A stretch of 20,074 nucleotides of DNA from a virus (IMGVR_UViG_2663763227_000012), one strand, 5' to 3'; positions 4,938 to 20,074 are shown, counted from the first letter of the stretch. The notes: a model not told the origin generated them from the letters alone. Made by a program: numbers and translations.

Positions 4938-4995
4938 AAAAAGGGCGGCAGAGCAGTCACGGAGTAAAACTGATACCGCCAAACGTCACCAGAAA
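4938..4995 (-). ncRNA. dicF: DicF small regulatory RNA (ftsZ-targeting sRNA)
   Basis: Reverse complement of 4938-4995 reads TTTCTGGTGACGTTTGGCGGTATCAGTTTTACTCCGTGACTGCTCTGCCGCCCTTTTT, the DicF sequence with its terminal GC stem and U-tail. Lies between ydfC and dicB as in Qin. Confidence 0.85.
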
Positions 4996-10356: not shown

Positions 10357-10690
10357 ATACAGCGAACTCCATTGGTTTAGTTGGATATTTACTGTGCTGG
10401 ACAAAAACGGTTTGCGGGGAAATCTTAGTTAAGTAGAATGACTGCGGGTGCTTGAGGCTATCTGCCTCGGGCATGGACACCAACGGCAGATAGAGAAAAG
10501 CCCCAGTTAACATTACGCGTCCTGCAAGACGCTTAACATTAATCTGAGGCCAATTTCATGCTAGACACATGTAGGTTAGCCTCTTACGTGCCGAAAGGCA
10601 CGGAGAAGCAGGCTATTGTTAACACCAAGCTGTAATGTCCCCTTTGAACCATTCTAAAATGTCCCCAGACAATTCTCTGGGGGATTTTTC

Positions 10691-14593: not shown

Positions 14594-14872
14594 ATGGCAC
14601 GCAACGCAAAATATTACAATTCTGATAATTCGCCCGTTCTTGCCTGCACGCACGGGCGGTATTCTCACGCATTCAAGTCTGAATGGTTCCAGCACCCTCC
14701 ATGCACTGCAGAACAGGCCGAATGGCTGATTCATTCTTACCGCAGGCGCGGGTTCGAGGTTAAGAAAGCTCTCAGTCTCGACTATCGGCACTGGATAATC
14801 TCTGTCAGGCTGCCTTATTCCGAACGCCCACCACGTGCGTCCCGCACTTTCCAGCAACGGATCTGGAGGTAA
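14594..14872 (+). CDS. Hypothetical protein (Cys/His-containing)
   Basis: 92-aa ORF with GGAG RBS before ATG 14594. Its stop (14870-14872) lies 1 nt before the GTG start of the DUF968-like gene. Confidence 0.5.
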   Translation: MARNAKYYNSDNSPVLACTHGRYSHAFKSEWFQHPPCTAEQAEWLIHSYRRRGFEVKKALSLDYRHWIISVRLPYSERPPRASRTFQQRIWR

Positions 14873-15875: not shown

Positions 15876-15935
15876 TATTTCGTTTTATCGATCGCGCGCT
15901 GGCAATTGGCGTACTGGCGTAAGTGGAGAACGAGC

Positions 15936-16688
15936 ATGAACCTTGAAGCCTTACCAAAATATTACTCCCCAAAATCTCCAAAATTGAGCGATGACGCTCC
16001 AGCGACAGGCACCGGTTGTTTAACAATTACGGATGTAATGGCAGCGCAGGGGATGGTGCAGTCGAAAGCACCACTTGGGTTGGCCTTATTTCTGGCAAAA
16101 GTTGGTGTTCAGGACCCTCAGTTTGCGATTGAAGGCCTGCTAAATTACGCGATGGCACTGGATAACCCGACATTGAACAAATTGAGTGAAGAAATCCGGT
16201 TACAGATTATTCCTTACCTCGTGAGTTTTGCCTTTGCTGATTACTCCAGGTCTGCGGCAAGTAAGGCTCGCTGTGAGCATTGTTCAGGTACGGGATTTTA
16301 TAATGTATTGCGCGAAGTGGTGAAACACTACAGACGCGGGGAATCTGTAATCAAGGAAGAATGGGTGAAGGAACTATGTCAGCATTGCCATGGTAAGGGC
16401 GAAGCCAGCACAGCGTGCAGAGGGTGTAAGGGTAAAGGGATTGTTCTGGATGAAAAAAGAACCCGGTTTCATGGCGTACCGGTATATAAGATTTGTGGGC
16501 GTTGTAATGGAAACCGGTTTAGTCGTTTACCGACCACGCTGGCACGACGTCATGTCCAGAAGCTGGTACCAGACCTGACCGATTATCAGTGGTATAAGGG
16601 GTATGCGGACGTCATTGGTAAACTGGTAACAAAGTGCTGGCAGGAAGAAGCATACGCGGAAGCGCAATTGAGGAAGGTGACGAGATAA
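15936..16688 (+). CDS. quuQ: Late-gene antiterminator Q
   Basis: 250 aa from ATG 15936 (MNLEALPKYY...), GGAG 8 nt upstream. Cys-rich zinc-binding region (CEHCSGTG...CQHCHGKG...CRGCKGKG...CGRCNGN) typical of the 82/DLP12-type Q family. Confidence 0.8.
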   Translation: MNLEALPKYYSPKSPKLSDDAPATGTGCLTITDVMAAQGMVQSKAPLGLALFLAKVGVQDPQFAIEGLLNYAMALDNPTLNKLSEEIRLQIIPYLVSFAFADYSRSAASKARCEHCSGTGFYNVLREVVKHYRRGESVIKEEWVKELCQHCHGKGEASTACRGCKGKGIVLDEKRTRFHGVPVYKICGRCNGNRFSRLPTTLARRHVQKLVPDLTDYQWYKGYADVIGKLVTKCWQEEAYAEAQLRKVTR

Positions 16689-16793
16689 ATGATTTTTGCT
16701 GAAGATGGCGACATGATGTTTGCATTTTTCAAAAAATATGGATAAAATTTTTTCAACGATGGGCTTTGTATACCCGACGTTAAGAAAAAGTAG

Positions 16794-16824
16794 AAAACCC
16801 GCTGATGAGCGGGTTTTGTGCTTT
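16794..16824. terminator. Bidirectional intrinsic terminator (candidate tR')
   Basis: CCCGC-tgatga-GCGGG stem (16798-16813) flanked by A-run and T-run, so it is T-rich on both strands. About 105 bp downstream of Q. Confidence 0.6.
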
Positions 16825-17109
16825 AAATGGGGCAATGGTAATGTTGAATCTCATCCCGGGACTCATGTCTGTTAACTTATTATTTAGCTGGTGACTTGGT
16901 TATTTGCCTGATGTTTAAAATGTTTTCTTCCAGTACAATGTCCCTAAACACAATGAGTCTGCTTATTATATTATTAGCAGAGCTATTACGGCCAAAGTAC
17001 AGCATAAGCTTTTAAAGCCAATCAACCAGTCATCAAGACAGACGGGGTTATTCATAAAAACTCTCCATGTGTGATCCGATGGGGCCTGAAATTAAAGCTT
17101 TAATATAGC

Positions 17110-17322
17110 TCATGAAAGGTAAACATTGGCAGCTGAAGGGCCACGCAGACCATTTATCCGGCAAAATTCCACGCGTAATCCGGTGGTAATTTCTTCTGCA
17201 TCGCGGAGATTGAGCGCTGAAACATGAAGCTGGACATCGATACGACCATCGGATGGGGTGATAAGACCCTTGCCGCTTTTGCCGTCAAAGGTTTTGACAA
17301 TTCCTGTCATTTTACGGGACAA
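17110..17322 (-). CDS. cspF: Cold-shock-domain protein, CspF/CspH family
   Basis: 70-aa ORF ([70 protein letters not shown]), divergent from cspB. Confidence 0.85.
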
Positions 17323-17622
17323 AAAAATTCCTTAATACTTATAACTTGGCGCACTATACACACGTTCCTGAAGAAAGCTATAGTTTTTTGATGGGGTTGA
17401 AGATGGCTGGATGTCTAAAATAAACATTGCTTCATATGTTCAACTATGCGTTAATGATTGCGTCGGTTTGAAGAACAGACGATATACGAAGTAGTTTACT
17501 AAAGCAGTTCTCATTTCAGGTGTTATTCACTTATTCCTTCTTTGAGTCTCTCCAATTAAGTACGAAGTCGTTTCTGTTATGCAAACCATTTATGCCGAAA
17601 GGCTCAAGTTAAGGAATGTAGA

Positions 17623-17838
17623 ATGTCAAATAAAATGACTGGTTTAGTAAAATGGTTTAACGCTGATAAAGGTTTCGGCTTTATTTCTCCTGTTGATGGT
17701 AGTAAAGATGTGTTTGTGCATTTTTCTGCGATTCAGAATGATAATTATCGAACCTTATTTGAAGGTCAAAAGGTTACCTTCTCTATAGAGAGTGGTGCTA
17801 AAGGTCCTGCAGCAGCAAATGTCATCATTACTGATTAA
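17623..17838 (+). CDS. cspB: Cold-shock protein CspB
   Basis: 71-aa ORF ([71 protein letters not shown]) with RNP1/RNP2 motifs and a ~300-nt AT-rich upstream region typical of csp genes. Confidence 0.9.
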
Positions 17839-18118
17839 AATTCATCGCTCGTCTGTATACGATAACGAAGAAGGCTGATGCCTGAGTAGAGATACGGACA
17901 GAGTAGTGAATATTGGATCTCTTTAATAAAAAGTAAGGAGGTCCAATACATGAAACAATGGCTAGCATATTTGGCAAAATCTTAATCAGGAAAAGTATGC
18001 TAACCATTGTGGTGAAGTGCAGGTTTGCTGCATGAATAGTTTTACAGCAGAAGCTAACTGCTGGCATGGCAAAACAAAGTGCGTAAGTGGATGACTCCCA
18101 CAAAAAGCACCACAATCT

Positions 18119-18145
18119 CAAACCCGCTCAGGCGGGTTTTTTATT
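18119..18145 (+). terminator. Rho-independent terminator downstream of cspB
   Basis: CCCGC-tcag-GCGGG stem (18123-18136) followed by TTTTTTATT. Confidence 0.7.
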
Positions 18146-18201
18146 ATCTGCTTTAAATATATTATTAAAATATAAAAAATACTTGTTACTAATAAAATCA
18201 A

Positions 18202-18372
18202 TCAGGCTACAGCTTTAAGATTTGTCTGGAATACTTTGTTGCAATGAGGGCAGATCAAAAGGGCACCTTTTTGTACTCTTGAAAAACTGTGTTCTGACTC
18301 TTGGGTGCAGTTTGGGCAGGAACATTTAACGAGATAATTACGGCGTGATTTTGAGTTTTTACGTTCTGACAT
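18202..18372 (-). CDS. Small zinc-ribbon protein (CxxC...CxxC)
   Basis: 56 aa from internal Met of ORF 18202..18423 (MSERKNSKSRRNYLVKCSCPNCTQESEHSFSRVQKGALLICPHCNKVFQTNLKAVA), basic N-terminus and two CxxC pairs. May correspond to one of the small Qin zinc-binding proteins; not confirmed. Confidence 0.5.
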   Translation of the reverse strand: MSERKNSKSRRNYLVKCSCPNCTQESEHSFSRVQKGALLICPHCNKVFQTNLKAVA

Positions 18373-18591
18373 AGGCTTTTCCTGTATAAATGGCCGTATA
18401 CAGTACACTAAATATGAAAACATTTCTCGTATTATTATTTTATATATGACTTTCTTTCAAAATAATTACCCACATTTTTAATGTGTATGTTTTTTTAGCG
18501 CCGTTGAGAACAACGTGTGCTGTCAAAACTACCCCGTAGACTCCGAGCTTTTCAAACATATTGCACCATCCGTGTACATCGGGGTGAGGAT

Positions 18592-18807
18592 ATGAAATCA
18601 ATGGATAAGTTAACAACAGGTGTTGCCTATGGCACATCGGCGGGTAATGCTGGTTTCTGGGCATTGCAGTTACTCGATAAAGTAACTCCGTCACAGTGGG
18701 CTGCAATCGGTGTGCTGGGTAGCCTGGTTTTTGGCCTGCTGACGTATCTGACAAATCTTTATTTCAAGATTAAAGAAGACAGGCGTAAGGCTGCGAGAGG
18801 AGAGTAA
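18592..18807 (+). CDS. essQ: Holin (EssD/EssQ-type)
   Basis: 71 aa from ATG 18592 ([71 protein letters not shown]), GAGGA RBS, transmembrane segments and a charged C-terminus. First gene of the lysis cassette. Confidence 0.85.
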
Positions 18808-18811
18808 TCCA

Positions 18812-19119
18812 ATGACTCAAGACTATGAACTGGTTGTGAAAGGAGTCCGTAATTTTGAGAATAAAGTTACGGTAACTGTAGCCTTACAGGACAAAGAACG
18901 CTTTGACGGTGAAATTTTTGACCTGGATGTCGCCATGGACCGTGTTGAAGGAGCTGCGCTGGAGTTTTATGAGGCAGCAGCCAGAAGGAGCGTCCGGCAA
19001 GTCTTCCTGGAAGTAGCAGAAAAATTGTCAGAAAAAGTTGAGTCTTATCTGCAGCATCAGTACTCCTTTAAGATTGAAAATCCTGCCAATAAGCACGAGC
19101 GTCCTCATCATAAATATCT

Positions 19120-19123: not shown

Positions 19124-20074
<951 letters not shown>

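Follow-up and report, generated by a model that had tools for sequence, protein, structure and literature searches.

The cspF–cspB cold-shock gene pair of a Qin-type prophage lies in the late-operon moron slot between tR′ and the holin gene

The window, a 20,074-nucleotide stretch of viral DNA (IMGVR_UViG_2663763227_000012) taken at its full length, is a Qin-type lambdoid prophage of Escherichia coli. Positions 16600–18900 differ from E. coli K-12 MG1655 by only two SNPs in 2,301 bp, at 17340 and 18547, both of them intergenic. Among RefSeq E. coli chromosomes, one matches the same region at 100% identity and many match it at 99.9%; at a coverage of at least 80%, it is found in 1,615 of 5,426 complete E. 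coli genomes (~30%). RefSeq chromosomes that match it carry annotations for cspF, cspB, ynfU, essQ/essD, and ydfT, and the gene order at matching loci is ydfU, ydfT (antitermination protein Q), ynfS, cspF, cspB, ynfU, essQ/essD (holin), ydfR, rrrQ, rzpQ, and cspI. In the Qin prophage of K-12, cspB (b1557) and cspF (b1558) likewise lie between ydfT/quuQ and essQ, in the same locus and the same order, and the CspF and CspB proteins of the window are identical in sequence to those of K-12. The two prophages differ at rzpQ, which is intact in K-12 Qin and split by an IS3-family element at 19818 in the window. Because rzpQ is cut, the prophage in the window is defective, and its late transcription is a remnant, no longer a working program. 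The features of the locus are as follows.

15936–16688, plus strand: ydfT/quuQ, late antiterminator of the Q-lambda family (Pfam PF03589, 181.3 bits; DnaJ-type zinc finger; RefSeq annotation)
16720–16760, plus strand: putative late promoter pR′ (−35 TTGCAT at 16720–16725, 17-nt spacer, −10 TAAAAT at 16743–16748, AACGAT(GGG) from 16755)
16794–16825, both strands: tR′, a hairpin at 16794–16817 followed by a T-tract (fold energy, pattern scan, phage annotation)
16966–17055, minus strand: ynfS, a 29-aa small protein encoded 3′ of cspF (Pfam YnfS PF23697, 80.9 bits; K-12 b4750)
17110–17322, minus strand: cspF, a 70-aa divergent cold-shock domain (CSD) protein with a TTG start (NCBIfam CspF, Pfam CSD; K-12 b1558)
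17353–17358, minus strand: predicted cspF −10 element TATAGT (invariant in the cspH–cspG locus and in phage PHB10)
17427–17455, plus strand: cspB promoter (−35 TTGCTT, extended −10 TGcGTTAAT, AT-rich UP-like block ahead)
17462–17622, plus strand: cspB 5′ UTR of 161 nt, with a cold box, of the cspA thermoregulator type (Rfam RF01766)
17623–17838, plus strand: cspB, a 71-aa CspA-family cold-shock protein (K-12 b1557)
17839–18146, plus strand: cspB 3′ UTR of 308 nt, with a predicted multi-hairpin domain at 18006–18115, a terminator hairpin at 18120–18139, and a T-run to 18145
18202–18372, minus strand: ynfU, a 56-aa zinc-ribbon protein (Pfam YnfU, 107.3 bits; NCBIfam NF038384)
18592–18807, plus strand: essQ, the P21-type holin gene with which the backbone lysis genes begin after the cargo (Pfam PF04971, 116.7 bits)

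The original prediction placed a divergently transcribed cold-shock gene pair with a shared gap of about 300 bp between Q and the lysis genes, and this arrangement is borne out: the gap at 17323–17622 measures exactly 300 bp with a GC content of ~36%, Q lies upstream of the pair, and the holin gene essQ lies downstream. The pair and its neighbors belong to a larger cargo block at 16818–18565, 1.75 kb in length, where GC content falls to 0.33–0.40 from ~0.50 on either side. By BLAST, homology to SfV, Ayreon, and PhiR47_1, phages that carry the same Q, ends at 16817, the same base at which the tR′ stem ends. It restarts at 18566 (PhiR47_1) or 18580 (Ayreon), 12–26 nt before the ATG of the holin gene. 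To place the block among phages, we searched phage records with window positions 15900–18900, a query that also holds csp and holin sequence, and 447 records matched. Six of these cover at least 80% of the query (Q to holin) at 94–99.9% identity: PhiR42_1, HannyBb, 2H10 (two records), PhiR63_1, and Tritos. PhiR42_1 is 99.9% identical over the cassette stretch. Since so few records reach this coverage, most phages that match parts of the region lack the cassette.

That the csp genes are morons within the late operon, as proposed earlier, agrees with their low GC content and their absence from phages with the same Q. They lie between pR′/tR′ and the lysis genes, their base composition departs from that of the backbone, and cspB has its own promoter and terminator. 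The same slot is occupied elsewhere by other cargo: a DNA methylase gene with its own terminators in SfV and Ayreon, four tRNA genes in PhiR47_1, and, in the stretch covered from Stx2c-converting phages, which ends ahead of any stx ORF, a methylase gene together with two tRNA genes. In all of these phages, the slot lies behind a Q/pR′/tR′ region that is ~90% identical to that of the window. Lambdoid pR′ morons (methylase and tRNA genes, and stx in Stx phages) thus share a position after tR′ and before the holin gene. The cargo of the window differs from other lambdoid morons in consisting of cold-shock-family genes and genes for small proteins, and in that two of its three transcription units run antisense to late transcription. 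Sequence downstream of pR′ that is subject to Q antitermination has been described as tolerant of morons (PMC4104026). The csp pair is a further example of cargo in this well-known slot. The cspF–cspB pair of Qin is also long annotated, a textbook locus. Given a known locus in a classical moron site, the finding of the pair adds nothing new.

The late switch in front of the cargo resembles that of lambda. Besides its Pfam assignment, the Q protein matches the Q-lambda structure in PDB entry 7UBM with an E value of 4.6e-36. It belongs to the same family as lambda Q but carries an additional DnaJ-type zinc-finger insertion and is longer (250 versus 207 aa). The sequence TTGCAT-17-TAAAAT lies between the Q stop codon and the hairpin at 16794 and is followed, 6 nt past the −10 element, by AACGATGGG. 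In lambda, AACGAT acts as a sigma-dependent pause element, and Q engages polymerase there. In a comparison with lambda pR′, the −10 element, TCAACGATGGG, and the AACGATGGG pause element all keep their register, and Tritos, PhiR47_1, SfV, and Ayreon preserve the whole block. The hairpin at 16794–16817 stands 106 nt past the Q stop codon and has a fold energy of −23.9 kcal/mol on the plus strand (z −9.3) and −15.1 kcal/mol on the minus strand (z −6.0). The annotations of SfV and Ayreon label this hairpin a terminator. A pattern scan picked it up on the minus strand, where the cspF–ynfS unit can end. We read 16720–16825 as pR′ and tR′ because of the conserved block, the register shared with lambda, and the terminator annotation in SfV and Ayreon; by analogy with lambda, the pR′ elements would function in the same way here. 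The predicted product is a short pR′ RNA of ~68 nt, from 16755 to ~16822, as compared with 194 nt for the short pR′ RNA of lambda (6S RNA), with a terminator soon downstream in both. In Stx phages, a pR′ that fires constitutively but is terminated in the lysogen has been described, its product being a short RNA, StxS (PMC7547250).

Of the two cold-shock genes, cspB is the more conventional. Against the NCBIfam CspA subfamily (cutoff 130), its product reaches 144.3 bits, and against the Pfam cold-shock domain PF00313, 109.1 bits; RNP1 (KGFGFI) and RNP2 (VFVHF), the motifs whose aromatic residues stack on nucleic acid, can be read from the translation. The Rfam cspA thermoregulator RF01766 is matched with 158.8 bits (gathering score 78), model positions 1–428 corresponding to 17462–17854 of the window. 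Since this match begins at 17462, the cspB mRNA probably starts nearby, which gives a leader of 161 nt with a cold-box-like start. The cold box and the leader length are cspA-like. The gene departs from cspA at its 3′ end: in cspA, a terminator directly after the stop codon forms the 3′ end of the RF01766 model, which goes unmatched in cspB, where a 308-nt 3′ UTR is found instead. The leader is preceded by a −35 element (TTGCTT, 17427–17432), an extended −10 element (TGcGTTAAT, 17447–17455), and an AT-rich block ahead of both. This promoter is kept in four contexts, namely, the window, the cspH–cspG locus, the csp gene of SSU5-like phage-plasmids, and phage PHB10.

The partner gene had been called cspF-like. 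The family assignment stands, but the name was too cautious because the gene is cspF itself. CspF scores 160.4 bits against NCBIfam CspF (cutoff 111) and 77.8 bits against PF00313. Its RNP1 and RNP2 read SGKGLI and VQLHV and lack the usual Phe residues, in agreement with an earlier statement that CspF is without the RNP1/RNP2 aromatic residues (PMC6719143). Only three aromatic residues occur in the entire protein, and of the two proteins encoded at the locus, CspB alone carries aromatic RNP1 and RNP2 motifs. Given that the cspB promoter occupies 17427–17455, roughly 100 bp of the gap is left for cspF. The sole conserved element upstream of cspF, cspH, and the cspF-like gene of PHB10 is the −10 hexamer TATAGT (17358–17353, minus strand); there is no good −35 element, and the leader predicted from this hexamer is ~25 nt long. 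The cspF side reached only a subthreshold 15.1 bits against RF01766, which places cspF outside the cspA thermoregulator family. Long AT-rich leaders had been ascribed to both genes. The description fits cspB, whose 161-nt leader is a full RF01766 match, but not cspF with its short predicted leader. CspF-type genes are rare among phages, appearing in 14 of 50,697 phage records. In Tritos, cspF is frameshifted and ynfS is deleted, whereas cspB, its 3′ UTR and terminator, and ynfU are retained. As Tritos forms plaques, cspF and ynfS are dispensable.

A review lists cspA, cspB, cspE, cspG, and cspI as the cold-induced members of the family, citing Etchegaray 1996 for cspB, and describes cspF and cspH as having very low expression, undetected protein, and unknown function (PMC4956666). 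A decomposition of transcriptome data groups cspF and cspH with cspA, cspB, cspG, and cspI in a Cold Shock iModulon (PMC13034041), and long-term stationary phase at 37°C brings a joint rise in K-12 transcripts of cspB, cspF, and cspI (PMC7406224). In a Tritos lysogen, expression of cspB exceeded the local background 59-fold (PMC9928086). Therefore, cspB is a bona fide cold-shock gene, whereas the case for a cold response of cspF is equivocal for RNA and unsupported for protein. The proposal of temperature-responsive leaders accordingly applies to cspB, with its RF01766 match and reported cold induction, and does not extend to cspF.

Relatives of the cassette are found both on the host chromosome and in unrelated phages. 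The chromosomal cspH–cspG locus of E. coli K-12 (b0989, b0990) is a paralogous divergent pair with a mean column identity of 82%, flanks and intergenic region included. The two pairs have in common the start region of cspF and cspH, the TATAGT −10 element, and, for cspB and cspG, the UP element, −35 element, extended −10 element, and cold box. They differ in placement and in what follows the second gene: cspH–cspG does not lie between Q and a holin gene, and cspG is directly followed by ymcF, ymcE, and gnsA without a 300-nt 3′ UTR. Homology between cspB and cspG stops at the stop codon. PHB10, an unrelated 57-kb phage, has a divergent cspF-like/cspB-like pair with the same promoter elements, flanked by umuC and a gene for an SOS-response peptidase. 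On SSU5-like phage-plasmids, the same promoter, leader, coding sequence, long 3′ region, and terminator occur together, convergent with dnaE.

The latter arrangement bears on the end of the cspB transcript. A hairpin at 18120–18139 followed by TTTTTT has a fold energy of −12.8 kcal/mol, compared with −3.9 ± 1.8 kcal/mol in shuffled sequences. The terminator earlier assigned to cspB at 18123–18142 falls within this element, which stands 282 nt past the cspB stop codon rather than immediately behind it. That the terminator nevertheless belongs to cspB follows from its travel with the rest of the cspB unit on the SSU5-like phage-plasmids, in a wholly different neighborhood. In the PHB10 copy, the promoter, leader, coding sequence, and 3′ domain are shared with cspB, and the GC hairpin is missing.

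The stretch between the cspB stop codon and the end of the T-run (17839–18146) is unannotated, and it folds with an energy of −105.2 kcal/mol against −72.3 ± 4.7 kcal/mol in shuffles (z −6.95). Across the Qin-type, phage-plasmid-type, and PHB10 copies, conservation is highest in the 3′ part of this stretch. RNAalifold predicts a 9-bp closing stem (18006–18014 with 18107–18115) that encloses four hairpins and is followed by the terminator. The alignment covers three phage lineages (Qin-like lambdoids, SSU5-like phage-plasmids, and PHB10), and within 18006–18115 the predicted partners form standard pairs in 97.9% of its cells, as opposed to 31–53% when partners are slid by one to three columns. 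Eight of 37 pairs are changed on both sides, compared with 3.8 ± 1.1 in shuffles (none of 500 reaching eight) and zero to two with slid partners, and these compensatory changes fall in four of the five helices. Covariation could be assessed over these three lineages only, since a 19-mer scan of species-representative genomes recovered the domain in no species other than E. coli, E. ruysiae, and S. flexneri, the other 14 matches being chance. A search of the cspB 3′ UTR against Rfam returned no family, with subthreshold, terminator-driven hits to Trp leader (21.7 bits), isrK (18.3), and FourU (16.6). In the literature, we found no named sRNA at the cspB 3′ UTR and no Hfq RIL-seq data on the site. 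From the alignment, the last ~140 nt of the 3′ UTR plausibly form a conserved structured RNA domain. As a tentative suggestion, such a domain could be a 3′-UTR-derived regulatory RNA or an element that governs how stable the mRNA is in the cold.

Two other accounts of this 3′ UTR were rejected. A small open reading frame at 17951–17986 (MKQWLAYLAKS) is preceded by a perfect TAAGGAGGT ribosome-binding site, but that site lies inside a 14-bp hairpin, most Qin variants carry an L5P substitution, and the frame is missing from the phage-plasmid and PHB10 copies, so we do not regard it as a conserved gene. A repeated mobile element of the MITE or REP type is contradicted by the single copy per genome, and the appearance of a separate module in one copy of the 3′ UTR (L046) is explained by an IS insertion at ~18003.

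The original prediction further held that such genes would interrupt or modulate late transcription dependent on Q; for an interruption, we found no support. Polymerase modified by a Q of the lambda family resists hairpin-dependent terminators, and the Q of the window belongs to that family, so polymerase would be expected to pass both tR′ and the cspB terminator. The pause element is conserved, complete phage genomes carry the cassette, and one of these phages, Tritos, plaques on MG1655 and has had its virions imaged (PMC9928086). Some modulation of late transcription by the cassette is still conceivable. With read-through by Q-modified polymerase, the cassette would be carried along and would not act as a barrier. 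We therefore consider it highly probable that the locus is a cspF–ynfS/cspB cargo cassette of a Qin-type prophage that sits in the moron slot between pR′/tR′ and the holin gene and is transcribed through.

A working model of this kind has two states. In the lysogen, every gene would form its own transcription unit. The cspB gene is the cold-inducible member, transcribed from a cspA-like extended −10 promoter and equipped with a thermosensing leader, a structured 3′ UTR, and its own terminator; cspF–ynfS would be read from the other strand, with a weak promoter and a short leader, and end on the back of the tR′ hairpin. The pR′ promoter would fire constitutively and stop at tR′, giving the predicted ~68-nt RNA. 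Once Q is made, homology to lambda Q suggests that it would load at pR′; family membership and the Tritos plaques suggest that the modified polymerase would then pass tR′ and the cspB terminator. On its way into the lysis genes, this polymerase would run antisense over ynfS and cspF, sense over cspB, and antisense over ynfU.

Because cspB is sense-oriented downstream of pR′, its product might instead serve the phage, being made in quantity during lytic growth and acting as an RNA chaperone or antiterminator for phage expression at low temperature. Such a role is compatible with the finding that Qin-like lambdoids, PHB10, and SSU5-like phage-plasmids, whose backbones are unrelated, all have a cspB-like gene that keeps this promoter, leader, and 3′ domain, and also with the second csp gene, cspI, which RefSeq places 3′ of the lysis genes in Qin. 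On the other hand, that cspB retains a promoter of its own and is active in the lysogen (PMC9928086) agrees with an ordinary benefit to the lysogen, and the Q-to-holin stretch is largely covered by just the six phage records listed above. We regard a phage-serving role as unlikely.

A second alternative concerns the source of lysis gene transcription. In vitro SELEX with RpoD gave a peak in the essQ–cspB spacer with a predicted promoter, TTTATA-16-AATAAT (PMC3946193), which our promoter scan places at 18439–18466, and peaks for minor sigma factors, given in heat-shock and extracytoplasmic tables that apparently refer to RpoH and RpoE, fall in the same spacer (PMC5493296). Given the predicted essQ promoter, the lysis genes might not depend wholly on pR′; they could even be transcribed mainly from a Q-independent promoter (sigma-70 or sigma-E) within the cargo, and the position of the csp genes would then be without regulatory consequence. 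These SELEX data are, however, in vitro and low in resolution. A better promoter-like match, with 10 of 12 positions, is found on the opposite strand at 18460–18431, upstream of ynfU, a gene that was unannotated at the time of the SELEX studies. The spacer is also part of the variable cargo rather than of the phage backbone, and transcription of the lysis genes mainly from such a promoter seems improbable.

It is very unlikely that the cassette is a functional and possibly temperature-dependent attenuator of the late operon, working through the cspB terminator and convergent cspF–ynfS and ynfU transcription: although the sense-strand terminator is strong, two antisense units cross the path of late transcription, and the cspB 3′ UTR is highly structured, polymerase modified by a Q of this family resists hairpin terminators, complete phage genomes, including that of the plaque-forming Tritos, carry the same cassette, and SfV and Ayreon carry terminator-bearing cargo in the same slot.

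Read as cargo that is carried along in late transcription, the cspF–ynfS/cspB cassette provides a clean worked example of the lambdoid moron slot: the cargo begins exactly where tR′ ends and stops just short of the holin start, a single hairpin terminates both strands, and the same csp cassette recurs across phage types. The only possibly new item at this otherwise familiar locus is the covarying domain in the cspB 3′ UTR. If it is what the alignment suggests, the domain would point to an additional layer of post-transcriptional control for phage-borne cold-shock genes.

The 3' UTR of cspB, the plus-strand member of the divergent cold-shock-family pair between Q and the holin gene essQ, is unannotated and folds strongly over window 17839-18146 (z -6.95). 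The core of this structure, listed below with the other features of the window, is also retained, with compensatory changes, in cspB-like genes of SSU5-like phage-plasmids and of PHB10, an unrelated phage carrying a similar gene pair. No Rfam family was matched by the domain.

Features in the window
4943-4994, minus strand: DicF small RNA (Rfam, 76.7 bits)
10446-10617: sok antitoxin RNA adjoining hokD (Rfam, 104.1 bits)
14594-14872: 92-aa ORF between rem and ydfU
18006-18115: core domain of the cspB 3' UTR, a closing stem with four hairpins
Within 18431-18466, minus strand: promoter-like site TTGAAA-18-AATAAT, upstream of ynfU
Within 18431-18466, plus strand: promoter-like site TTTATA-16-AATAAT

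Within the same 3' UTR, window 17912-17986 holds an 11-codon ORF (MKQWLAYLAKS) with a perfect ribosome-binding site, TAAGGAGGT, 7 nt ahead of it; the site is buried by a 14-bp hairpin. A weak, sub-threshold match to the FourU thermometer falls at 17914-17945. Conservation of the ORF was absent in diverged copies, and an L5P variant is present in many Qin copies.

Upstream of the cargo block, a short constitutive RNA of ~68 nt is predicted to run from the late promoter pR' to the terminator hairpin tR' (window 16755-16825). The predicted transcript folds well (-30.4 kcal/mol, z -6.4), and its position resembles those of lambda 6S RNA and StxS. An A-rich stretch precedes the tR' hairpin only in copies with cspF downstream, namely this window and phage Tritos; because of this stretch, the hairpin could also be used as a terminator on the minus strand.

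Between ynfU, a minus-strand zinc-ribbon gene, and essQ, promoter-like sites on both strands overlap in an AT-rich spacer (window 18431-18466). The plus-strand site is the one given to the essQ operon in a 2014 RpoD SELEX paper (PMC3946193), an assignment that predates knowledge of ynfU.

Elsewhere in the window, the DicF and sok RNAs are as expected for Qin. The best-matching genome lists the 92-aa ORF as a hypothetical protein; the K-12 MG1655 annotation of that sequence contains no equivalent. Identity to both K-12 and the best-matching genome ends at 19817, inside rzpQ, and the sequence beyond (19818-20074) encodes a transposase C-terminus on the minus strand (ORF 19859-20065), which by eye, from its translation, looks to be of the IS3 family. 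As a result, this copy has an interrupted lysis cassette.

In Tritos, the region corresponding to window 16862-17322 (L004 2426-2654) carries a deletion of 16862-17119, which removes the small-protein gene ynfS together with the final 10 nt of cspF and leaves the remaining cspF frameshifted. In this plaque-forming phage, cspB, its 3' UTR, and ynfU are intact.
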